Source: Cytophagales bacterium
Lineage (GTDB): Bacteria > Bacteroidota > Bacteroidia > Cytophagales > Thermoflexibacteraceae
DNA: 17,869 nt
Direction of reading: 5' to 3'
Assembly (NCBI GenBank): GCA_043748455.1
Contig: JAYTNF010000169.1
Coordinates: 1 to 17,869 of the forward strand
The translations under genes and the position numbers were made by a program. Each line of letters begins with the position of its first letter. The first letter of the stretch is position 1. The notes under the pieces are model-generated. The model did not search any database. It was given only the letters and a program-made list of their open reading frames with translations, and was not told the DNA's origin. Of the stretch, positions 1 through 17,869 are shown piece after piece.

Positions 1-3000
1 CCAACTTTCATACGTGCCACCTTCCCAATACGTCAAAGCACCATCATATAATTGCATCGTTTGCAATTTCTGAATAGCAGCTTGCACATTCTTTTTAGGA
101 TTTAGCAACTCTAAATTGCTATCTCCTATTGATTTTGCTATCTCTGCAAAGTAAATTTGAGGAAAAGCAGTCGAAGTTGTCTGTTCTACGCATCCGTATG
201 GATATTGTACCAAATATGCCAAGTTTTTAGAAAACTGCACCGCAGGAGATTTCGAAATGATTAATTTCCCTGAAACAGAACTTTGAATATAGTCCGCAGC
301 CAAGTCCAAAGTCGTATTAGTTTCAATAACTCCCGAATTAGAGGTTTTCAATAACGAGGTACTTGGACGTACTGTAATGTCTAAATTTTCCTTGAAACTT
401 TCACCATTACTCGAAAAACTTACATTGACTTTTGCAGTACCAATAAGTTCTTTTGCTTTGATTTTAAACTTGATTTGTTTTTCTCCATTTGGCGAAATTA
501 CCACATCAGAACTATTCGCACTTGTTAAATTTATAGCACCCGAAACATCAATAGTTGCTTTTCCGTTGGCATCTTTTAAAGTCGTATTTGTTACGGTCAT
601 CGTAATATCAACTTCATCATTTGGCGACAAAAATCTCGGTAAAGACGTACTCACAATAATTGGGTCAGCAATAGTCATATTTTTATTAGCACTACCGAAA
701 CCTGCATTTTTATGTGCCACCGCAATAATTCGCACACTTCCCGAAAACTTAGGCAAATTAACCGTATAACGAACTTCGCCATTGCCATCAGTTTTCAAAG
801 TTTTGCTCCAAAATGACAATAATTTTACCCTTTTATTTGCCAATGGATTAGTTCTTCCACTCAAATCATAATCATCTGCACCATAACTACGTGGCAAAGT
901 TTTAATTTCTGGAAAAAGTCGTGGATACATATCATAAGCCCGAACTTCTAAGGCACGTTTTTGAAAGAAAAAGGCGTAAGGATTTGGGTTTTCATACCGT
1001 TTTTTCAACAAAATTCCCTCATCAATTACTGCAACTGTAACCTCAATTCCTGCTTCACGTTTGCCACATTGCACCACAATTTCTTGCTTAACTTCTGACC
1101 TCGTTTTTTCTACTGCCTTGATTTCCAACGGAATAACATTGTCTGGATTTTCAACTGTAACCGACTGAAAACCGTGTGCAACCGTTAATGGAATGGCAGT
1201 TTGCGTAGCCGATTTTATCAAAGTTGCGGTTACGTACATATTCGGTACATAATCATTTTCTATTTTTACAGAAACTTCCGCAGCTTTTTTGTCCGACTGA
1301 GCATAAAAATATTTTTTCACTGTTCCCTGTTCTATCGTAACTAAAATTTTACCTTCAAAAGGTGTTTTTAGTAGGAATTTTGCAGTTTCGCCAACTTTAT
1401 ATTTTGCTTGGTCTGCCACAATTTTAATTTCGCCATCTTTATCAACTTCAAAAGACGAATTTTCTGTACTTCCCCAACTATACGCATAAAAACGTGCTAC
1501 AACGTAGGTTTGGTCGTTATTTTCGGCGGTAAAACGGACTTCATATTCCCCTGAACGGGCAGCCACAAAAGGATAATTTGTCGATTTTCCTTGCACACTT
1601 AGCATTTGTTCTTGCACAACTGTTTCTTTTTTCTGCGAAACATAGCGGAAATTATTGTTATAATCTCTTTCCAAAGCCGACTGCCAGTCATAACGAATAA
1701 TTTTTATTTTACCTTTTACAGACGTTGCAGCTTGCCCTTTTCTGTTCACTGCAATTAACCCAATTTGAATTGGCGTTTTGGTATTGTGGTAATAATCAGT
1801 CATTTTGATACCATAATATAGGTTTTGCGTTTCGACTTCAAAAGTCTTTTTCGAAGTAACAGTTCTGCCTGTTTCATCAAAAGCAGTTGTGTAAACATCA
1901 CCTGTCAATAAGCCCGCAAACTCAACTTGTGGCAATTCAAAACTTGCAACAATACCACCATTTGCATCAGTTTCTCCTTCCCTTCTTTCCAATTCTCCAA
2001 TATTTGGCACACCACCATAAATCGTAAAATTGTAATCTTCTAAGCCTTTCGAGTAAAATTCTTTGCGATTTAAAGTAGCAGTTGCTTCATATTTTCGGCT
2101 ACTTGCAGGAGTTCCAAACAAATTCATCACCACCGATTTTGCGATAACATTTTCGCCAGATTTATAAATTTCTTTGTCTAAATTTGTTGTAACTTTTATA
2201 CGGTCAGGCATAAATTCCTCAATATTTATGTTTTTGGAATTGAGAAATATGTCATTCGATGTATAAACTTCGATGCTATAACTTCCTGTAACCGCAGCAG
2301 GAGGAATGGTTAAAGTGGTTTCAAAGCTACCTTGTTCAGACAAAATGCCTCGAAAAACCTTAAATTCATTCCCATCAGGCAATAAAACTTTCATTTTTAT
2401 AGGAATTCCCGCAACAGGTCTGTAATCTTTATCTCTAATAATGGTTTTGATATTTGCAACTTCGTCAGGTCTGTAAAGTTCCCTATCTCCATAAATAAAT
2501 GCTTGATATTGCCCTACATTTCGACCAGTTTCATTATCATAACCATTGAATTTTACACCACCAATTTCAAAACGGTTCATACCTACCGCAGCTTGTTTGT
2601 AGTGCATATACGTAAAATCTTTTGCACCAGCTTCTTGTGCAGTAATCATTGTTACGTTGAAATCAGGGATTTTTTTCTTCAAATTTTGGAAATATGCAAC
2701 CCCATCAGCATCAGTTTTTGCAGTCAAAACCTCTTGATTATTTTCACTCACCAGCGTAACTTCTACATCTTTTAAGGCTTTTGTATCTATAATTGAGTTA
2801 GCAAAAACCCAAATATCGTTATCCGTAGCACGAGAAATTAAACCAATATCAGACATCGAAACCACCGAAGATGCACGTTTCCATTGGTCATCAACAGATT
2901 TTACTGTAACCACATAAATTCCTTTGTAAGTTGGCAAACGGTCAATAAAATCCATAGAAATAATTTGTCCGCCAGCACCTTGTGTCATATTTTTGGTTTC

Positions 3001-4326
3001 GTAATCTTGATTTAAAACTTGTGAACCATAATATTCCAAACCGCCATAATTATCAGAATAGTAATAATCACCCTCGCCATCTTCGCTGTAAGAATAATTG
3101 TAAAATCCCACTTTTTCACGCAAAAAGTTATTAATATTGTTATTGAAAACCTTATAAATCGAAACATTTACTTTTGCAATTCCAAAGATTTTTAAGGCAA
3201 TATTTTTCTGTCCTTTTGAAGTTAGATAAACAGATTTTTCAGAAGCAAAGGCAATCGTAGGAGATAATTCACCAAAAGTTATGTATTGTTCAAAGTTTTC
3301 AGCTAATGGAGTTCCCAAAACACCTTGTAAGTTTTTTTGAATAATAATCTTATAACTTCCCTCAAAATCAAATTTTCCTTTCACATAAAAACCAAAATCA
3401 GACATTTCTATTTCTGTTTGTGCAATTTTTGGTTCTATTATAATCAGTTCTTTTATTTGTTTTGCAGTCATTCCAATAGCCTGATTTGTAGATACGTGAA
3501 TGGCAGGACTTGTGCCTACGGTTTCGCCCATAACCTGCGTTATCTTAAAATCATTCGCATCGGGAACATCTGTTTCAAACTTCAATTCTTGGGCTTCATA
3601 GTCGCTATTTTGCAATTTTAATCCTTTTTTCACTGTAATTGCAGCAGTTTTGCCATCAAATTTCACATTTGGTATATTTGCAATGGCTAATTGTATTGTT
3701 GGCGAAACTTCTGTTTTATCAACTTTAAATGTAACAGCTTTATTATCAACCGTTAAATTAGTCAAATTTGCAACATCTGCGGGATTAACTTTGTAATTAA
3801 ATTCGAGATTTAAACGAACTTCTGGGCTACCTTGTTGATTTGCCACCCATAAAGCTTGTGCATTTACAAGAGCCAAATAAGGCGTATGAAACTTAAATTC
3901 TTTCTCTCCTGCAAGGCTAAAATTTGGGCTTTGTGGAGGTAAGTTTTTTACCAATTCGTCATTTAAAGTACCTATATAATCTGTACTTGGTTTGAAAGAC
4001 ATTTCAGGCGAAAAAATCAAATCACGTTTAGAATTCCATTTAAACTTACCTTGAATTTCAGGCGTAAATTTAATATACTGTGTCGAAACCCATTTATCTA
4101 TGAGTGTGTCGTGTGCTAAATCTTCCGAAAAACTAAATGTAAGATTTTGCTGTAAATTGATTTCATTTGTAAAATTTTTGCTCCTCAACTCAACTGTATC
4201 ACCCGAAAATGGAGATTTACAGGAATAGGAAATTAGGAATAATGCCAATAATCCTACAAAATTTCTAAAAATTTTATAGGTTTTTGGAATAGGTTTTGAC
4301 ATAATTGTTGAAAAATGGGTTTTCAT
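1..4326 (-). CDS. Alpha-2-macroglobulin family protein, large (>1440 aa in window), probable lipoprotein. The C-terminus lies beyond the window start. The N-terminal signal peptide is MKTHFSTIMSKPIPKTYKIFRNFVGLLALFLISYSCKS. The thioester-like motif YPYGCVEQ is encoded at about 181-204.
   Basis: I translated the minus strand manually. The frame is open from the ATG at 4324-4326 (alternative ATG at 4300-4302) to the window edge. Spot translations at about 1-210, about 1980-2040 and 3300-4326 stay in one frame. The MG-domain-like beta-rich sequence and the GCVEQ motif (A2M thioester consensus GCGEQ/CxEQ) support the family call. The six-frame track shows no plus-strand ORF above 130 aa over 1-4300, which fits antisense noise. 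Confidence 0.8.
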   Translation of the reverse strand, partial: MKTHFSTIMSKPIPKTYKIFRNFVGLLALFLISYSCKSPFSGDTVELRSKNFTNEINLQQNLTFSFSEDLAHDTLIDKWVSTQYIKFTPEIQGKFKWNSKRDLIFSPEMSFKPSTDYIGTLNDELVKNLPPQSPNFSLAGEKEFKFHTPYLALVNAQALWVANQQGSPEVRLNLEFNYKVNPADVANLTNLTVDNKAVTFKVDKTEVSPTIQLAIANIPNVKFDGKTAAITVKKGLKLQNSDYEAQELKFETDVPDANDFKITQVMGETVGTSPAIHVSTNQAIGMTAKQIKELIIIEPKIAQTEIEMSDFGFYVKGKFDFEGSYKIIIQKNLQGVLGTPLAENFEQYITFGELSPTIAFASEKSVYLTSKGQKNIALKIFGIAKVNVSIYKVFNNNINNFLREKVGFYNYSYSEDGEGDYYYSDNYGGLEYYGSQVLNQDYETKNMTQGAGGQIISMDFIDRLPTYKGIYVVTVKSVDDQWKRASSVVSMSDIGLISRATDNDIWVFANSIIDTKALKDVEVTLVSENNQEVLTAKTDADGVAYFQNLKKKIPDFNVTMITAQEAGAKDFTYMHYKQAAVGMNRFEIGGVKFNGYDNETGRNVGQYQAFIYGDRELYRPDEVANIKTIIRDKDYRPVAGIPIKMKVLLPDGNEFKVFRGILSEQGSFETTLTIPPAAVTGSYSIEVYTSNDIFLNSKNINIEEFMPDRIKVTTNLDKEIYKSGENVIAKSVVMNLFGTPASSRKYEATATLNRKEFYSKGLEDYNFTIYGGVPNIGELERREGETDANGGIVASFELPQVEFAGLLTGDVYTTAFDETGRTVTSKKTFEVETQNLYYGIKMTDYYHNTKTPIQIGLIAVNRKGQAATSVKGKIKIIRYDWQSALERDYNNNFRYVSQKKETVVQEQMLSVQGKSTNYPFVAARSGEYEVRFTAENNDQTYVVARFYAYSWGSTENSSFEVDKDGEIKIVADQAKYKVGETAKFLLKTPFEGKILVTIEQGTVKKYFYAQSDKKAAEVSVKIENDYVPNMYVTATLIKSATQTAIPLTVAHGFQSVTVENPDNVIPLEIKAVEKTRSEVKQEIVVQCGKREAGIEVTVAVIDEGILLKKRYENPNPYAFFFQKRALEVRAYDMYPRLFPEIKTLPRSYGADDYDLSGRTNPLANKRVKLLSFWSKTLKTDGNGEVRYTVNLPKFSGSVRIIAVAHKNAGFGSANKNMTIADPIIVSTSLPRFLSPNDEVDITMTVTNTTLKDANGKATIDVSGAINLTSANSSDVVISPNGEKQIKFKIKAKELIGTAKVNVSFSSNGESFKENLDITVRPSTSLLKTSNSGVIETNTTLDLAADYIQSSVSGKLIISKSPAVQFSKNLAYLVQYPYGCVEQTTSTAFPQIYFAEIAKSIGDSNLELLNPKKNVQAAIQKLQTMQLYDGALTYWEGGTYESW

Positions 4327-4360
4327 ATATTGTTGGGTTTGTTATAAGTTCAAATAGATA

Positions 4361-4392
4361 ACTTTCCAAAAGTAAACAAACTTTTGGAAAGT
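4361..4392. promoter_or_regulatory. Perfect 12-bp inverted repeat, ACTTTCCAAAAG-N8-CTTTTGGAAAGT, 35-65 bp upstream of the A2M gene start. It is a candidate operator, or possibly a weak terminator for paralog A.
   Basis: Palindrome read directly. The AT-rich stem (3 GC pairs out of 12) argues for a protein-binding site more than for a stable terminator. Confidence 0.4.
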
Positions 4393-4431
4393 ATTAGCTT
4401 AGTTTTAGAAAGTTTTTTTGGCTTATAAAAG

Positions 4432-4484
4432 TTACACTTTTTCTGGGGAAAGTGCAAAAAAGAGAGAAATTTATTTTTTTGTGG
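4432..4484 (+). repeat. Copy 1 of a conserved intergenic motif (TTACACTTTTTCTGGGGAAAGTGCAAAAAAGAGAGAAATTTATTTTTTTGTGG). It lies between the 3' end of paralog A and the 5' end of the A2M gene.
   Basis: About 88% identical over about 50 bp to copy 2 at 5143..5192, in the same orientation. The flanking AAAAGTTACAC / AAAATATTACAC is also similar. Confidence 0.7.
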
Positions 4485-4503
4485 GAGAAATATTGGTACT
4501 ACT

Positions 4504-5100
4504 TTATTTCACATAAAGTTGTATAATGTGATGCCATACACCTAATATTTCTTGTAAATCTGTATAAATTTTGTTGTCTATGTAAAATATGTTATTTTCA
4601 AAACGCATAAACTGCCAATCATTACTATTGGTTGCACAACCATACAAAACAGGAATATTTTTGCCTTCCATTTCATTAAAAAGTTTAGCTCCATATAATT
4701 GTGCTGCACATTGAGCAATGCCATAATCCATATCTTCATCTTTTGCCTCTACTAATGAAATTATAGGACTTTCTAAATAAGGTTTTCGAGGGGCAAGTAC
4801 AAAGAAAAAATCACACTCACCCGATAAATTTTTATCACCATCAACATAAAGTTCTTCTCCCGAAAATAAAGTAATTTTGTCAAAATAAGCCTCTGCTACT
4901 TCGCTTAAAATAGGAGAAACTATTTTTTCAGATTTAACTTTTTCGTTAGTTAAAGGAAAGAAGTAAGCCTTTTGTAATGTCATTTTTAACCAATCACTTG
5001 GGGCAATAGGTGTTATACTTTCAAATAAAATTGCTTTTTCTGCATTTAAACCAAAAGTCTTTGTTACTTCTTTGAGTTTTTTGAATTTGCTATATCCCAT
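4504..5100 (-). CDS. Hypothetical 198-aa protein, paralog A of a divergent pair. It may have a PD-(D/E)xK-like nuclease fold, with motifs D(FFF) ... VEAKDED.
   Basis: ORF from the track. It is about 50% identical by eye to the 5233..5832 product. Shared blocks are MGYS.., ITP(I/V)APS(D/N)WL, PLTNEK.KSE.I.SPIL, ITLFSGE(E/D)L, CDFFF, (L/F)VEAKDED, YGCA and W(Q/K)F.R. A Bacteroidetes-type -7 box (TATCTTTG, reverse complement of 5126..5133) lies about 25 nt upstream. Confidence 0.8.
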   Translation of the reverse strand: MGYSKFKKLKEVTKTFGLNAEKAILFESITPIAPSDWLKMTLQKAYFFPLTNEKVKSEKIVSPILSEVAEAYFDKITLFSGEELYVDGDKNLSGECDFFFVLAPRKPYLESPIISLVEAKDEDMDYGIAQCAAQLYGAKLFNEMEGKNIPVLYGCATNSNDWQFMRFENNIFYIDNKIYTDLQEILGVWHHIIQLYVK

Positions 5101-5142
5101 AATTTTATTTCGTTTTTACTTTTCACAAAGATACAAAAATAT

Positions 5143-5192
5143 TACACTTTTTTTGTGGAAGTGCAAAAAGAGAGAGGAATTTATTTTTATTG
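5143..5192 (+). promoter_or_regulatory. Copy 2 of the conserved motif (TTACACTTTTTTTGTGGAAGTGCAAAAAGAGAGAGGAATTTATTTTTATTG), inside the shared divergent promoter region of paralogs A and B. Bacteroidetes-type -7 boxes lie at 5205..5212 (+, TATATTTG, for gene B) and at the reverse complement of 5126..5133 (TATCTTTG, for gene A).
   Basis: I compared the sequence directly with copies 1 and 3. The position is 40-90 bp upstream of the gene B ATG. The TAnnTTTG -7 consensus for Bacteroidetes sigma-A promoters is established knowledge. Confidence 0.55.
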
Positions 5193-5232
5193 AACTTAAA
5201 AGACTATATTTGCTTACAAAACTATCAACATT

Positions 5233-5832
5233 ATGGGATATAGCAATTACAAAAGCCTTAAAATGGCACTCAAAAGACTTAATTTAGATGAAATAGATAT
5301 TAATCTTTTCCCAAGCATTACGCCTGTTGCACCGTCTAATTGGTTGATAGAAACTTTAAAAATAGCTAAAAGAATACCATTAACTAACGAAAAAAGTAAG
5401 TCTGAAAGGATAATTTCACCTATTTTAGCAGAAGCAGCTTTGCATTATGAAAGCCAGATAACACTATTTTCGGGCGAAGATTTAACCGTAGATACAGATA
5501 GAGATTTATCGGGTGCTTGCGATTTTTTCTTTGCCAAACATCCACGCAAAAGTGTGATGCAAGCACCAATTATTACGTTTGTAGAGGCAAAAGATGAAGA
5601 TTTTGAGTATGGACAAGCCCAATGTACCGCACAAATGTATGCTTCATTGCTTTATAACGAACAAGAAGGAAAACCTATTCCTTTCGTATATGGTTGTGCG
5701 GTTACGGGTGATGTGTGGAAATTTTTGCGTTTGGAAAAAGACAAATTATATATTGATATTGAAAATTATTATGTGAATGATTTGCCTACTTTGCTCGGAA
5801 TTTTTAAACAAATTATAGAAAAATATTTGTAG
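5233..5832 (+). CDS. Hypothetical 199-aa protein, paralog B of the divergent pair, with the same conserved motifs as 4504..5100.
   Basis: ORF from the track with clear paralogy to the neighbouring gene. A -7-like box TATATTTG sits at 5205..5212, 20 nt upstream of the ATG. The conserved upstream motif (repeat copy 2) lies at 5143..5192. Confidence 0.8.
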   Translation: MGYSNYKSLKMALKRLNLDEIDINLFPSITPVAPSNWLIETLKIAKRIPLTNEKSKSERIISPILAEAALHYESQITLFSGEDLTVDTDRDLSGACDFFFAKHPRKSVMQAPIITFVEAKDEDFEYGQAQCTAQMYASLLYNEQEGKPIPFVYGCAVTGDVWKFLRLEKDKLYIDIENYYVNDLPTLLGIFKQIIEKYL

Positions 5833-5850
5833 TTATTCAGGTGTGTGATT

Positions 5851-5865
5851 GTGGCTTTTAGCCAC
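5851..5865. terminator. Weak hairpin (GTGGCT-TTT-AGCCAC) between the convergent genes ending at 5832 (+) and 5914 (-).
   Basis: 6-bp perfect stem with a 3-nt loop. No strong U-tract follows, so this is low confidence. Confidence 0.2.
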
Positions 5866-5913
5866 CAAAACCATATAACAACAGTAGACAATTTTATTTC
5901 ACAGAGATAATTT

Positions 5914-8136
5914 CTACATCAATAAACCTACAACCGATATATCATCACGTTGTGGTTGTTCTTTTTGATGCTGATTTAAGGCATCTATCAATATTTGTTT
6001 TTGCTCATTTAATGCTGTATTTTGAAATGCTCCAAGCATTGTTCTTAGATTTTGCAAGCCTAAACGGTTTCTATTTGCATCATTTTGGTCTGTGTAACCA
6101 TCAGTGCTAAAATAGATAACTTGACCTTTTTGTTGGGTAAATATTTGGTTATTAAATTTTTGTTTGTTGTTACTATTGCCTCCAATGGTAATTCTGTCGC
6201 CCGACATTTTAGTTATTATGTGATTTTCTGCATGTGTTAAATTTTCAAAATAATATATATATGTATGTGAGCCTGCAAAAGTTATTTCAATTTTTTGATG
6301 TGCTTGTTTTTCAAAAAGACATAAGCTAATATCCAAACCATCAGAGTTTTTGCCCTCATGTTGTCTTAATATCTTCTGGATACGAATATCTAAATTCTGT
6401 AAAATCTTTGCAGGTGATTCTATTTTTGCAATTTCTACTGCCTCATATAATAAGGTATTACAAACCATTGTAACAAATGCACCAGGTACGCCATGACCTG
6501 TGCAATCTGCTAAGGCAAACAAGGCTCGTTGGTAAGATTGATTGTCAATAATAGTATCTGATAAGTTTGTAAACCAATAAAAATCTCCACTTACTACATC
6601 TTTTGGTAAATAAATTGTGAAATGCTCTTTAAAAAAACTGTTTATTAATGCAGTATCAGGCAAAATAACTTGTTGTATATTTTGGGCATATTTAATACTT
6701 TGATTAAGTCTTTGTGTAGTATCTTGCAATTCTATGAGTGTATTTTCAGCACGTTGTTTTTGTAACTCGGTTTCAATATGTTGTATTCCTAAAGTTTCAT
6801 TAATAGTTAAAAGTTCTTCTTGTTGTTGTTTAATTTCTTCATTTTGCACTTCAAGCATCATATTATTTTCATGAAGTTCTTGAGTTCTGGTGGCTACTTT
6901 TTGCTCTAAAACTGCATTTTGCTCTTGCACTATGACAAGCAAATCAGCTTTTGCTTTTTCGTTATCTACTTTCAGACTATTTATTTTATCAGCCAATGCC
7001 AAAGATAGTAGCAACATTTCGGCTGCCGAACCAAGTTGCATGGCTTGTAATGTGAAAGCATTTGCAGGTAAAAGCCCTAAATTTCCACTAAATTGTGCTA
7101 TTACACAGAATAAAAAAGAACCAAAGGCATATAAATAAAATTTTGCAGGCTTAAAACCTTGTTTATAAAGTATCCAAGATGTATAAAGTAAATAGAAAGA
7201 GCTAATTAAAGCAATAGCATTTACTGAAATGCAGCTTGCAAAACGAAATCCTAAAAACCCTAATAAAGCAGAAATGAAATAACATAAAATTAGGAAAACT
7301 AAGATTTTATGATTTTTAGGAAGTTGCCTTTTAGTTTCGAGAAATAACACAGAAAATATATTTGCTAAACTGCCTGCAACTCCATAAATTCCAATAGTAT
7401 AAGGATTAAAACTTTCAAAATTCACAAATAACAATGAAGCACTAATTCCTTTAAAATCTGCCAAAGTAATACTCAACATAGCTACATAAACAACATAAAT
7501 TAAGTACAATTTATCTCTTACAGAAAACCAAATAAACAAATTATATAAAATAATGAGTAATGCAAACCCAAAATACATGCCCTGAGTAATATCTTGACGA
7601 TAACTTAGCCAAGTCATTGTGCTTTCCTTTGCAATAACAAGAGGAATTGCTAATGGTTTTATACTTTTTACACGAATAAAAAAAGTTTGGGTAGTATTTT
7701 CTACTAAGTTTAATGGAAAAATAAATTGGTGACCTTGATGAAAACGTGTTTTGAAAGGCACAAGCTGACCAATATGAAATACTTTTGTAACTGTATCTGC
7801 TTGAATATGGTATAAACTTAGGCTATCAATATCTCCTTTATCTATTTCTAAAAAAAACTTTTCTTGACTATTATTTTTTAGTTCAAATTGCAACCAATAG
7901 GTAAAAGGAGTTATCTGAAAATTTGGTACTTCGTTAGTGCTTGCTTTAAAAAGTGCCTGTTTTTCAAGATTAATGACCTCTGTTATGCTAAACTGACCTT
8001 CTTTATCTTCCAAAATTTTACAATATTCTCCAAGATATTTAGGTAGATTAGGGTTTTGCAAATCTATTACAGTCTGTGCAAAAATAGTATTTGTGGAAAA
8101 TAAATATAAAATAAGTAAAAAAATTAGTCTTAACAT
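5914..8136 (-). CDS. 7TM-DISM family sensor fused to a C-terminal PP2C/SpoIIE-type serine phosphatase. It has a signal peptide, an extracytoplasmic 7TMR-DISMED2-like domain, seven predicted TM helices, a coiled coil and a PP2C domain.
   Basis: The N-terminus MLRLIFLLILYLFSTNTIFAQ is a signal peptide. The central hydrophobic block of roughly residues 185-380 has about seven helices. A coiled coil follows (KVDNEKAKADLLVIVQEQNAVLEQK...). PP2C/SpoIIE motifs are SGDFYWF, ALADCTGHGVPGAF, DGLD and STDGYTDQ. Confidence 0.8.
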   Translation of the reverse strand: MLRLIFLLILYLFSTNTIFAQTVIDLQNPNLPKYLGEYCKILEDKEGQFSITEVINLEKQALFKASTNEVPNFQITPFTYWLQFELKNNSQEKFFLEIDKGDIDSLSLYHIQADTVTKVFHIGQLVPFKTRFHQGHQFIFPLNLVENTTQTFFIRVKSIKPLAIPLVIAKESTMTWLSYRQDITQGMYFGFALLIILYNLFIWFSVRDKLYLIYVVYVAMLSITLADFKGISASLLFVNFESFNPYTIGIYGVAGSLANIFSVLFLETKRQLPKNHKILVFLILCYFISALLGFLGFRFASCISVNAIALISSFYLLYTSWILYKQGFKPAKFYLYAFGSFLFCVIAQFSGNLGLLPANAFTLQAMQLGSAAEMLLLSLALADKINSLKVDNEKAKADLLVIVQEQNAVLEQKVATRTQELHENNMMLEVQNEEIKQQQEELLTINETLGIQHIETELQKQRAENTLIELQDTTQRLNQSIKYAQNIQQVILPDTALINSFFKEHFTIYLPKDVVSGDFYWFTNLSDTIIDNQSYQRALFALADCTGHGVPGAFVTMVCNTLLYEAVEIAKIESPAKILQNLDIRIQKILRQHEGKNSDGLDISLCLFEKQAHQKIEITFAGSHTYIYYFENLTHAENHIITKMSGDRITIGGNSNNKQKFNNQIFTQQKGQVIYFSTDGYTDQNDANRNRLGLQNLRTMLGAFQNTALNEQKQILIDALNQHQKEQPQRDDISVVGLLM

Positions 8137-8313
8137 AACAGATAAATATATTAGTTGTTTTGGTTATTGTCTTAATTTGATACTAAAAAATTTAGAATGT
8201 CAATATCAAAATATAAATTTTTCAAAGGCAATATCTATCCATATTTGAATAGAGTAATGATGAATAGATAAACTGATTATGTTTTGTTGTAAAGTTAATA
8301 TTATGTATGAGAA

Positions 8314-15719: not shown

Positions 15720-17869
15720 TTATTTCCCCACCGAAACCAAATTTGCAAACAACCTGTATGCACCTATCACACCTGCGGGCAATTCTCTAAAAAACGACAA
15801 ACCAGTATAAACATAATAACCTTTTCCATATTTGGCAACCAACAAACTACCATCTTTTGCAGGCTCACCTTTGTCATTACAACTCAATAAAGCCTCATAA
15901 TTTACGTCCCATTTGTTTGGAAAATACAAACCTCGTTCTTGCACCCAACCTTTAAAATCTTCTTGTGTAATTTTATTTGGCGAATTAAAAATCGAATGTT
16001 CTGGTTTTAACATACGCATTTCGGCATCTTCTTCAGTAACTCTATCTCTCGACAAAGTTATTGGGAAAGGTGCAAAATTTGGCGTTACTAATTCTGTAAG
16101 TTGGTTGGCAGTGTTATATTGCACGATAACAGTTCCGCCATCTTCTACATATTTTAGGATTTTGTCTTGATATTTTTTGAGTAAATCATTCGTATTGTAG
16201 GCACGAATACCAAAAACAATGGTTTCAAAACTTGCCAACTTTATGCTGTCTTGCAAAATTGCTTCGTTAATCACCGTAACTTCGCAACCCAATTCTTTCA
16301 AAGCATCAGGAATTGCATCTCCTGCACCTTCAATATAACCTACTTTTTTTACTTTCGTTTGTACATTCATCAACAAAACTTTTGCAGTTGCCTTTGGAAA
16401 TAAAGTTTGAATAGGAATATGTTTATAGTCAATACGAACTAAACTGTTGTCATATTCCACGCTATCAATAGTCAAAACTGCACGCATATTTATTGGTAAC
16501 GGACTAAAGTCCGTTGTACTTGATTTTACTTCAAACTCAAAAGTCTGAATTTTGTCTTTTGTTTTAAGGTCAATATCAAATTCATTGCTTGATGTAAGTG
16601 CTTGATTATCAAATACTAAACGTAATTTTCCCTTAATATTTGCTTTTTGGGCTTGCACTGTTACAGCAATTTTTTCAGCTTTTTGATTATTAACTCCGTT
16701 ATTGACTACGTAAGCTGACTGTGCAAAATTTACGGTTGCAGGTGGCGTAATTTCTAATCTACGATATTTTTCTCCGTCTATATCGTCTGTCCATTTGTGC
16801 AAAACAGGTTGAAAAATCGTAAAAGCTACCTCATTTATTTTGATAGAAAAAGCCATTTTTAAGCGTGGTGTATTTTCGGGCAATCCGATAACTTGCTGAT
16901 TATCAACCATAAACATTCCTTTCTTTTCGGGTTCTATCAACCAATAAGGTTGTGAAATAGGTACTAACTTTGAAATTAAAAACTTGCCTTTGTTCTCTTG
17001 CAATACATTTTCTTTCAAATCAATAGCAATAGGTTTATCCGATAAAATCATAGGAATTGGCAACATTACATCATCGTGATAACGACCTTCGCCGATTAAT
17101 TGCATTTGATAAACCACCACTTTTGCGTTGCTACTTCGTTTGATAATATTTGTAGTAATGTCTAAACTATCTCCTGCAACTGTTGAATAATTTTTAGCAA
17201 AAGCCTCACTCCAAACTCCCGCACAATTCAAAATAATACTTTGTAATTCTTTAGTTTTTTGTGTTTTCCAATAAGAATTAGGCAATTTTTGCATTTCTGC
17301 ATAAATTTCTAGCAATAAAGAAACGGAATTTTCGGGATTTTCTATTTCAAATTTTTGATTAGCTTTTTGCAATGATTTTACTATTTTTTCGCTATTAGCT
17401 ACATTATTCCAAGTTGTATTAATGTTTTCGAGTAGATGTTTGAGTGTTACATTATTATCACTTGACAAATTACTTTTTAGTAATTCCAGATACTCAATTC
17501 TTTGTCCACGCACCGCAGCTACACCAAAACCTTGACTTTTGTGTTGGCTGCGACTTTCGGCTGCAATTTCGCCATAATCTTTACCAAGCAAAACATTAAA
17601 TTTTCCTAAATCTATTGGAATAAGTCCTTTTGTAAGTTCTTCCATTGATTTTTTAGGGTCATTTGGTGCAAAAGTTGGGCGTAAAGGTCGCCAATTATTC
17701 CAAAAAATGCGTTTTGGTTGCCACACTTCCACAAAAGCCAACTGTTCAGGAAATGCGTTTTTATCTCCTGCAATGCCAAAAGCAACCTCTGCCAAAATTG
17801 CCGAAGATGAATGATGTCCGTGTCCTGCTTCCGAAGTTTTTGGAAATCTGGTAATCATAATATCGGGAC
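15720..17869 (-). CDS. Large PIG-L/LmbE-family N-acetylglucosaminyl deacetylase-domain protein (more than 715 aa). The N-terminus is truncated by the window end. The track ORF is 15720..17858, but the frame stays open to the window edge.
   Basis: The N-terminal region ...ITRFPKTSEAGHGHHSSSAILAEVAFGIAGD... is typical of PIG-L/LmbE Zn-dependent deacetylases. There is no stop upstream of the first Met within the window (..PDIMITRF..). A long beta-rich C-terminal extension follows. Confidence 0.7.
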   Translation of the reverse strand, partial: PDIMITRFPKTSEAGHGHHSSSAILAEVAFGIAGDKNAFPEQLAFVEVWQPKRIFWNNWRPLRPTFAPNDPKKSMEELTKGLIPIDLGKFNVLLGKDYGEIAAESRSQHKSQGFGVAAVRGQRIEYLELLKSNLSSDNNVTLKHLLENINTTWNNVANSEKIVKSLQKANQKFEIENPENSVSLLLEIYAEMQKLPNSYWKTQKTKELQSIILNCAGVWSEAFAKNYSTVAGDSLDITTNIIKRSSNAKVVVYQMQLIGEGRYHDDVMLPIPMILSDKPIAIDLKENVLQENKGKFLISKLVPISQPYWLIEPEKKGMFMVDNQQVIGLPENTPRLKMAFSIKINEVAFTIFQPVLHKWTDDIDGEKYRRLEITPPATVNFAQSAYVVNNGVNNQKAEKIAVTVQAQKANIKGKLRLVFDNQALTSSNEFDIDLKTKDKIQTFEFEVKSSTTDFSPLPINMRAVLTIDSVEYDNSLVRIDYKHIPIQTLFPKATAKVLLMNVQTKVKKVGYIEGAGDAIPDALKELGCEVTVINEAILQDSIKLASFETIVFGIRAYNTNDLLKKYQDKILKYVEDGGTVIVQYNTANQLTELVTPNFAPFPITLSRDRVTEEDAEMRMLKPEHSIFNSPNKITQEDFKGWVQERGLYFPNKWDVNYEALLSCNDKGEPAKDGSLLVAKYGKGYYVYTGLSFFRELPAGVIGAYRLFANLVSVGK

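Follow-up and report, generated by a model that had tools for sequence, protein, structure and literature searches.

Two head-to-head PD-(D/E)xK-fold genes of a Cytophagales contig are probably solitary, relocating nuclease-type genes placed side by side by accident

Two adjacent genes, here called A and B, were analysed in a 17,869-nt stretch of DNA from a Cytophagales bacterium of the family Thermoflexibacteraceae (assembly GCA_043748455.1, contig JAYTNF010000169.1, positions 1–17,869, forward strand). The whole stretch is referred to as the window and has a G+C content of 32%. We favor the explanation, at a probability of about 0.6, that A and B are independently placed, relocating, solitary genes for stand-alone PD-(D/E)xK nucleases that were juxtaposed by a recent accident. 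The head-to-head pair is most likely not a functional module, the pairing appears incidental, and no evidence was obtained for a regulon with the nearby vault and A2M genes. Both proteins belong to the PD-(D/E)xK superfamily, within an uncharacterised family that lies outside Pfam and NCBIfam and is already captured by an accessory profile of PADLOC. The genes and the region that separates them are as follows.

4504–5100, minus strand: gene A, an open reading frame (ORF) of 198 amino acids (aa) for a PD-(D/E)xK-fold protein, A-type subfamily, solitary kind.
5233–5832, plus strand: gene B, an ORF of 199 aa for a PD-(D/E)xK-fold protein, B-type subfamily, solitary kind.
5101–5232, no strand: the divergent intergenic region of 132 nt, with both predicted promoters and repeat copy 2 inside it (sequence reading and repeat table).

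The two proteins share 107/199 residues (54%; BLASTP, E 1e-76), which is far beyond chance, and they are confirmed as true paralogs from different subfamilies of one large family. An initial annotation, made from the DNA letters alone, had put the identity at about 50% by eye. It had also listed an MGYS start and the blocks ITP(I/V)APS(D/N)WL, PLTNEK.KSE.I.SPIL, ITLFSGE, CDFFF, VEAKDED and YGCA as common to the two products, and every one of these was found in both translations. The head-to-head layout that it described across 132 nt (5101–5232) is seen directly, and its placement of the pair between the A2M gene and the vault locus matches the gene calls. The left flank is a truncated A2M-like gene (1–4341, minus strand), while the right flank is a 7TMR-DISM/SpoIIE gene followed by an MVP-shoulder (vault-like) gene (8462–10948, plus strand).

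The PD-(D/E)xK core that had been proposed from these motifs is supported by structure prediction. The AlphaFold2 model of B, built on an alignment of 39 homologs, has a predicted local distance difference test (pLDDT) score of 89.8 and a predicted template modelling (pTM) score of 0.88. The model of A, built on a 58-sequence alignment, has scores of 95.0 and 0.90 and the same topology. In B the elements follow in the order helix 53–70, strands 77–82, 96–101 and 112–118, helix 124–144 and strand 152–157, and the alpha-beta-beta-beta-alpha-beta core of restriction-endonuclease-like enzymes is present in both models. The second strand begins with D97 (of the CDFFF block) and the third ends with E118-A-K120 (of VEAKDED); E58 is part of the preceding helix, alpha1, and Q130 and Q134 are located in alpha2. 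From these canonical strand positions the catalytic residues are predicted to cluster in space.

Conservation was examined in an alignment of 93 sequences that are 31–60% identical to B. Residues E53, K54, S57, E58, S80, G81, D87, G94, C96, D97, P112, E118, A119, K120, Q130, C131 and N142 are at least 90% conserved, and G154, W162 and F164 are invariant. The complete catalytic set is retained in both A and B. The confident models, the canonical positions of the conserved E58, D97 and E118-x-K120, and a structure comparison in which the best bacterial matches were the nuclease domains of restriction enzymes all support the assignment.

Two other features of the proteins are conserved. The cysteines C96, C131 and C155 lie beside active-site elements (CD97, QC131 and YGC155), are conserved across the family and occupy the same positions in A; they could form a metal site, act as a redox switch or help to pack the core. 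Most of 150 family representatives begin with M-[GAS]-Y-[SK] (window 5233–5244 and 5089–5100), and Y3 is at least 90% conserved, which is unusual for the first residues of a protein.

Relatives of A and B were sought in 5.8 billion proteins. For B this gave 761 relatives and for A 736, about 200 aa each, and the named ones were all called 'hypothetical'. In a profile search of representatives at 50% identity, 2,134 clusters matched at E <= 1e-3, and 324 of them also at E <= 1e-30. Certain members are extended at the N or C terminus by sequence that contains no known domain, and one member is a fusion with a retropepsin-like protease. Scanning a single genome for each species generated 198 coding stretches, from which 80 loci were kept and ranked by similarity to B. 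Loci (designated by L numbers) L001–L053 are B-type and L054–L080 are A-type. They derive from Cytophagales, Microscillaceae, Raineyaceae, Bernardetiaceae, Saprospiraceae, Spirosomataceae (Emticicia and Runella) and Thermoflexibacter. Outside those groups, Acidobacteriota (Pyrinomonadaceae) are represented among the 80 loci and a Leptospiraceae metagenome-assembled genome (MAG) among the relatives of A, with copies at 55–69% identity.

One genome can hold many copies. In the MAG JAAFKA01 four loci together encode 8 copies of 170 aa or more, and a further A-type copy is on contig 24 (about 9 in all). Paralogs within a genome are mostly 50–70% identical, whereas orthologs across genomes reach 96–97%, so the paralogs look old and retained and not like recent copies of an insertion sequence. 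The ratio of nonsynonymous to synonymous substitution rates (dN/dS) of B against four orthologs is 0.03–0.06, which indicates strong purifying selection. A rare apparent pseudogene was seen in L060 (9283–9877), where two family-gene fragments (47% and 72% identical to A) lie directly upstream of an intact copy.

The initial annotation had suggested that the divergent paralogs are heteromeric partners or a toxin/antitoxin-like pair. Most copies in the 80 loci are solitary, and the few adjacent ones (L001, L009, L036 and L048) are tandems on one strand. Nowhere else in the 80 loci was a divergent A/B pair found; the layout is present only in the window and in the near-identical contig L093, whose A is 100% and whose B is 99.5% identical (one residue different in B). 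With the full catalytic set retained in both proteins, neither has the appearance of an inactive partner or of an antitoxin. Nor do the paralogs always occur together, since L092, the contig with the closest B ortholog outside the source population, has B without A, and several genomes are A-type only. In Emticicia, Runella and Pyrinomonadaceae an A-type gene is present but nothing B-type was matched; a B-type gene could not have dropped off the list, given its ordering by similarity to B. JAAFKA01 carries its A ortholog (L102, 86% identical) and its B ortholog (L001, 94%) on separate contigs, and in the MAG CANGYA01 the A ortholog (89%, L098) is on a contig other than that of the MVP-adjacent family copy (L014). 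The closest A orthologs, which are 86–89% identical, are all in contexts other than that of the window. Nor is there general co-occurrence with MVP, as an MVP gene (82% identical) is near a family gene in only 1/80 loci (L014). A 199-aa ORF beyond A2M in L093 was considered as a third family gene but is not a homolog.

No conserved neighbor emerged from all-against-all clustering of 870 flanking ORFs, which gave lineage-level synteny only. The 131 immediate neighbors match 150 Pfam families, headed by SufBD and PAPS reductase (4 times each) and followed by ABC-F ATPases, HtrA-type proteases and metallophosphoesterases. Among the same 131 neighbors PADLOC gave a handful of ATPase-type matches and no clear defence enrichment.

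Two groups of neighborhoods have a character of their own. In three Pyrinomonadaceae loci (L057 8544–10597, L066 4036–6083 and L071 8553–10597) the family gene follows sufB by 6–15 nt with suf-like genes downstream, and it appears to sit inside an Fe-S assembly gene cluster. In L094–L099 the A orthologs (88–89%) are followed by a Bro-N domain gene and then a PLDc_2/E2-CBASS-like gene, while in L098 a Peptidase_C14 (caspase-like) gene precedes the A ortholog. This second neighborhood looks conflict-related or mobile.

Gene A is bounded by copies of a repeat of about 52 nt. The segments involved are listed here.

4427–4478, plus strand: repeat copy 1, just past the 3' end of gene A (repeat search, family D1).
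5137–5188, plus strand: repeat copy 2, between A and B (repeat search).
8290–8341, plus strand: repeat copy 3, conserved in its 3' half only, upstream of the MVP gene (repeat search).
4305–4355, no strand: a segment of 51 nt that spans the start of the A2M gene, matches intergenic DNA of L092 at 90% identity and marks the left limit of the L092 similarity (blastn and alignment).

Gene A is bracketed by copies 1 and 2, which form direct repeats at a distance of 710 nt. The B ortholog of L092 is 97% identical in aa sequence, with a synonymous divergence (dS) of 0.22, and L092 matches the window at 94% DNA identity over 5142–5837 (696 nt, comprising repeat copy 2, the promoter and B). Gene A is missing from L092. 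Where the window has copy 1, A and copy 2, L092 has one hybrid copy (1091–1142; 87% identical to copy 1) and then B. The left edge of the hybrid copy resembles copy 1 and its right flank resembles copy 2, so gene A together with one repeat constitutes an indel bounded by direct repeats. The window and L092 also differ in the 55–71 nt that separate the 51-nt segment from the repeat. L092 has a second repeat copy about 95 nt after B (about 1848–1930 or, more narrowly, around 1884–1912), between convergent genes. The head-to-head position of A and B is probably a recent, lineage-specific accident of local rearrangement.

Restriction genes inserted between direct repeats of more than 30 bp, where the empty site has just one copy, have been described as 'long target duplication' (Furuta et al. 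2010, PMC2853133). The gene A locus is similar in that the bracketing repeats exceed 30 bp, a relative has a single copy, and no transposase or integrase is present. It differs in that the repeat is not otherwise unique, and in that gene A, unlike those restriction-modification genes, has no methyltransferase gene.

The initial annotation had also proposed that a shared motif ties A and B to A2M and MVP. Three same-strand copies do exist, but a regulon is not borne out by a motif confined to the window, the near-identical L093 and the closest relative L092. The repeat was not found near family genes in the 80 loci and is thus not part of the family unit in general. Rfam searches of 4300–8500 gave chance miRNA matches only, which means that the repeat does not correspond to a known RNA. 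The pattern TGCAAAAAGAGRGRRRAATTTATTTT had 0 matches in public metagenomes, and a gapped pattern of the full motif had 2, both in unrelated 45%-GC contigs without other similarity and therefore attributed to chance. An identity as an integron attC site was rejected as the RYYYAAC/GTTRRRY boxes are lacking. The copies away from gene A may be regulatory sites or recombination substrates.

B orthologs with 94–97% aa identity were found in five contexts that share no neighbor.

Window and L093: A, then B, then 7TMR-DISM.
L092: type III glutamine synthetase ... B.
L089–L091: porin and a 133-aa ORF, then B, then response regulator/histidine kinase.
L001: FtsX-type permease, a family gene, then B.
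L100 and L101: B, then ferrochelatase.

By contrast, 34/45 pairs of family genes with at least 95% identity share their neighbors, which are 95–98% identical, like the family gene itself. In L014 the MVP-adjacent family gene is only 69% identical to B while the MVP proteins are 82% identical, which suggests that one paralog was replaced by another at one position. The G+C content at third codon positions (GC3) of the B ortholog in L001 is 0.265, the lowest of its locus, versus 0.391 +/- 0.055 for its neighbors. The changes of context, the L014 replacement and the L001 GC3 value favor relocation or transfer. As judged from these comparisons of loci, the family behaves like restriction-type genes in general, being solitary, patchy, multi-paralog, under purifying selection and apparently relocated many times.

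Profile libraries were searched for known families. B matches Pfam PDDEXK_12 (PF20516) with 16.3 bits (E 0.0077), below the gathering cut-off of 27 bits, and A has no match; among the 93 relatives 12/93 match this family, all sub-threshold, with a best E of 4.5e-4. HSDR_N and HSDR_N_2 (PF04313, PF13588) match 3/93 and 1/93 members at E 0.02–0.03 only. Pfam Uma2 gave no match even at E <= 1, and NCBIfam gave none for A or B. Nothing meaningful was obtained from sequence searches of solved structures with a single sequence and two profiles, and the viral structure library BFVD gave no match with E <= 0.001. By curated thresholds A and B are not members of PDDEXK_12, HSDR_N or Uma2.

The PADLOC profile PD_DExK (PDLC01472, flagged as cas-associated) does match both proteins (B, E 1.2e-44; A, E 1.7e-36), over residues 52–197 and profile positions 2–142 of 146. 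The label 'PD-DExK' is also that of cluster 45 of Shah et al. 2018, a 'possible nuclease' with nine members next to type III CRISPR-cas loci and Marme_0670 as the representative (PMC6546367). Marme_0670 was described as a gene of unknown function by Silas et al. 2017 (PMC5576922). The derivation of the PADLOC profile from this cluster and the homology of Marme_0670 are both unconfirmed. Although A and B match the profile, they are adjacent neither to a CRISPR array nor to cas genes. CRISPR arrays were absent from the window and the 80 loci (three repeat hits were not arrays, and neither is a 72-nt unit at L032 4086–4302 in three tandem copies of 99% identity), and no cas family is among the most frequent families of the 131 immediate neighbors. 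A and B are not CRISPR-linked here.

A and B share their catalytic layout with the N-terminal nuclease domain of type I HsdR and with that of the type IIG enzymes BpuSI and DrdV (PDB 3s1s, 7lo5, 3h1t and 2w00). In those enzymes the nuclease is one module within 800–1,000 aa that also contain translocase or methyltransferase and specificity parts, whereas A and B are free-standing, 200 aa long, and carry an extra N-terminal element of about 50 residues, with no methyltransferase, helicase or specificity gene nearby. They are also not type II restriction-modification genes. An adjacent cognate methyltransferase is missing, the neighbors in the window being A2M and 7TMR-DISM/SpoIIE, and no methyltransferase family is among the top 25 families of the 131 neighbors. 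Uma2/DUF820 proteins (PDB 3ijm, 1wdj and 3ot2) are small, solitary and restriction-endonuclease-like, but their structural score is below that of the HsdR/BpuSI-type domains and their motifs differ from those of A and B (SEK.RSE, GECDF, VEAK, GQC and YGC).

The best structural matches of all were mL37 and mS30, two chains of the same mitoribosomal large subunit, which matched over the full length and unexpectedly strongly. They form a heterodimer of two related PD-(D/E)xK-fold proteins. Both (mL37 and mS30/mL65; PDB 3j7y and 7a5f) are eukaryotic ribosomal proteins about twice as long as A and B with 7–12% sequence identity to them, and no link at the sequence level was detected in the solved-structure searches. 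More speculatively, the family could be the closest bacterial relative of these mitochondrion-specific proteins.

Candidate signals for separate expression of the two genes were located by scanning.

5126–5133, minus strand: TATCTTTG, candidate Bacteroidetes-type -7 box of gene A (pattern scan TAnnTTTG).
5205–5212, plus strand: TATATTTG, candidate -7 box of gene B (pattern scan TAnnTTTG).
4361–4392, minus strand: ACTTTCCAAAAGT...ACTTTTGGAAAGT, a hairpin with a 13-bp stem followed by T-rich sequence (terminator scan).

A separate -7 box for each gene had been predicted, and the pattern is present for both. TAnnTTTG is common in this AT-rich window (48 occurrences versus 33.9 +/- 6.1 expected), so a single match is weak evidence. 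Both boxes fall within the short upstream stretches that can still be aligned to orthologous loci. TTTTTGTATCTTTG is kept upstream of the A orthologs in L094, L097 and L098, and the DNA similarity of the window to L089–L091 starts exactly at 5205. The hairpin is likely the terminator of gene A. Look-alikes occur in other Cytophagales contigs (L098 375–407, and upstream of the A orthologs in L094, L097 and L098), which makes it a dispersed palindromic repeat as well.

In the explanation that we favor, each gene would encode a free-standing PD-(D/E)xK domain of the HsdR/BpuSI type that cleaves DNA. Given the catalytic layout, each protein would be a Mg2+-dependent DNA phosphodiesterase and probably a homo-oligomer. 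E58, D97 and E118 would hold the divalent metal and K120 would serve as the general base or transition-state partner, roles that follow the established chemistry of the superfamily. Each gene would have its own promoter, and A its own terminator hairpin. As there is no methyltransferase or specificity subunit, the nuclease would have to be structure-specific, modification-dependent, tightly regulated or specific for rare sites. Our best guess for the biological role is a selfish or defence-type one, for example that of a solitary type IV-like nuclease that spares host DNA. This guess draws on the scattered solitary genes, the patchy spread across phyla, the allele replacement, the repeat-bounded indel and the match to a cas-accessory profile.

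Several points weigh against this explanation. Nuclease activity is a prediction for every member of the family, and no DNA-recognition domain is recognisable in the 200-aa proteins. Housekeeping genes make up most of the immediate neighbors, with no visible enrichment of defence genes, which weakens a defence role and argues against a classical defence-island gene. The repeat is not unique, given the third window copy at 8290–8341 and the second L092 copy after B. The indel is explained equally well by an insertion of A and by its deletion in the L092 lineage through recombination between repeats. Between more distant B orthologs dS is as high as 0.9–1.1, so part of the differences in context could be ordinary synteny decay.

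A bolder proposal is that the family is made up of selfish nuclease genes that mobilise themselves, like free-standing homing endonucleases; the nuclease would cut an empty site and repair would copy the gene into it, with the ~52-nt repeats as the duplicated target. This would fit the polymorphic presence of A between direct repeats at a single site, the two repeat copies that flank B in L092, the near-identical B genes in five contexts, the different paralog at the MVP-adjacent position of L014, and the lack of a transposase or integrase nearby. The Acidobacteriota and Leptospiraceae MAG copies and the Pyrinomonadaceae gene just after sufB can be read the same way. We nevertheless regard homing as doubtful. 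Within-genome paralogs are 50–70% and not nearly 100% identical, many orthologs are stably syntenic, the very few pseudogenes and the low dN/dS are unlike the gain and decay cycle of homing endonuclease genes, and the repeat is dispersed, confined to this species group and not found beside family members in other genomes. Similarly tentative is the idea of a hitherto undescribed kind of self-propagating solitary nuclease gene in Bacteroidota chromosomes, in which a 0.6-kb promoter-plus-ORF unit would relocate or swap alleles without a transposase, between duplicated repeats of about 50 nt, as proposed for restriction-modification genes but with no methyltransferase involved. Alternatively, the genes might encode a housekeeping nuclease for structure-specific DNA repair or recombination, or an RNA-processing enzyme, that was merely duplicated in Cytophagales. 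Strong purifying selection, neighbors such as SufB, HtrA, ABC-F and PAPS reductase, and single matches in stable synteny in Emticicia and Pyrinomonadaceae would agree with that. We consider it unlikely: the distribution is patchy, neither NCBIfam nor Pfam has such a family, genomes differ widely in copy number, close relatives differ by relocation and by presence or absence of the gene, and no conserved operon partner emerged.

A co-evolved heteromeric or toxin-antitoxin-like pair, sharing a regulatory region and co-regulated with A2M and MVP through the motif, is very unlikely. It would account for the divergent arrangement over 132 nt that hold repeat copy 2, for the repeat copies upstream of A2M and MVP, for the family gene beside MVP in L014, and for best structural matches that are two chains of one mitoribosomal large subunit. 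Yet the 80 loci contain no second divergent pair, A-type-only genomes exist, the A and B orthologs of JAAFKA01 (L102, L001) and CANGYA01 (L098, L014) are on separate contigs, and L092 carries B alone. The proteins are of equal size with all catalytic residues kept, unlike toxin-antitoxin pairs. MVP is near a family gene in a single locus, the motif does not accompany family members outside this species group, and one L092 repeat copy lies between convergent genes, upstream of nothing. Finally, the nuclease fold may have been reused for nucleic-acid binding or scaffolding, as in mL37 and mS30. This is extremely improbable, because conservation of E58, D97, E118 and K120 at 90% or more over 93 diverse members is not expected after loss of catalysis.

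Other elements were observed elsewhere in the window. Three genes that match the Menshen antiphage system occupy 11923–15594 on the minus strand, about 6 kb from the A/B pair: NsnA (DUF262/GmrSD_N, E 7e-91), NsnB (AAA ATPase, E 1e-101) and NsnC (E 2e-8), the system name being from PMC12065111. A palindromic element of 31–36 nt (15678–15713) lies between the NsnA-like gene and the next ORF. It matches two intergenic segments of L090 (2584–2619 and 7805–7838) at 92–97% in both orientations and represents a second dispersed repeat family. Right after the MVP gene, at 10963–11012, is a near-perfect 24-nt inverted repeat (92% complementary, 2-nt loop) that is probably a bidirectional terminator between MVP and a convergent M50B peptidase gene.

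The main value of these results is negative, in that the pair is most likely not a functional module and gives no support for a vault/A2M regulon. The points of interest are the relocation behavior, the lack of a self-protection partner and the strong full-length structural match to mL37 and mS30. The repeat-bounded presence and absence of gene A is a concrete, testable case of relocation of a nuclease gene without a transposase. If the predicted activity is correct, genomes of Cytophagales and related Bacteroidota would contain up to about 9 solitary, strongly conserved HsdR-type nuclease genes each. A nuclease without a methyltransferase or specificity partner raises the question of how host DNA is spared and what is cut. 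The family comprises more than 2,000 clusters at 50% identity and lacks a model in both Pfam and NCBIfam, so thousands of 'hypothetical proteins' would gain an annotation once an activity is defined.

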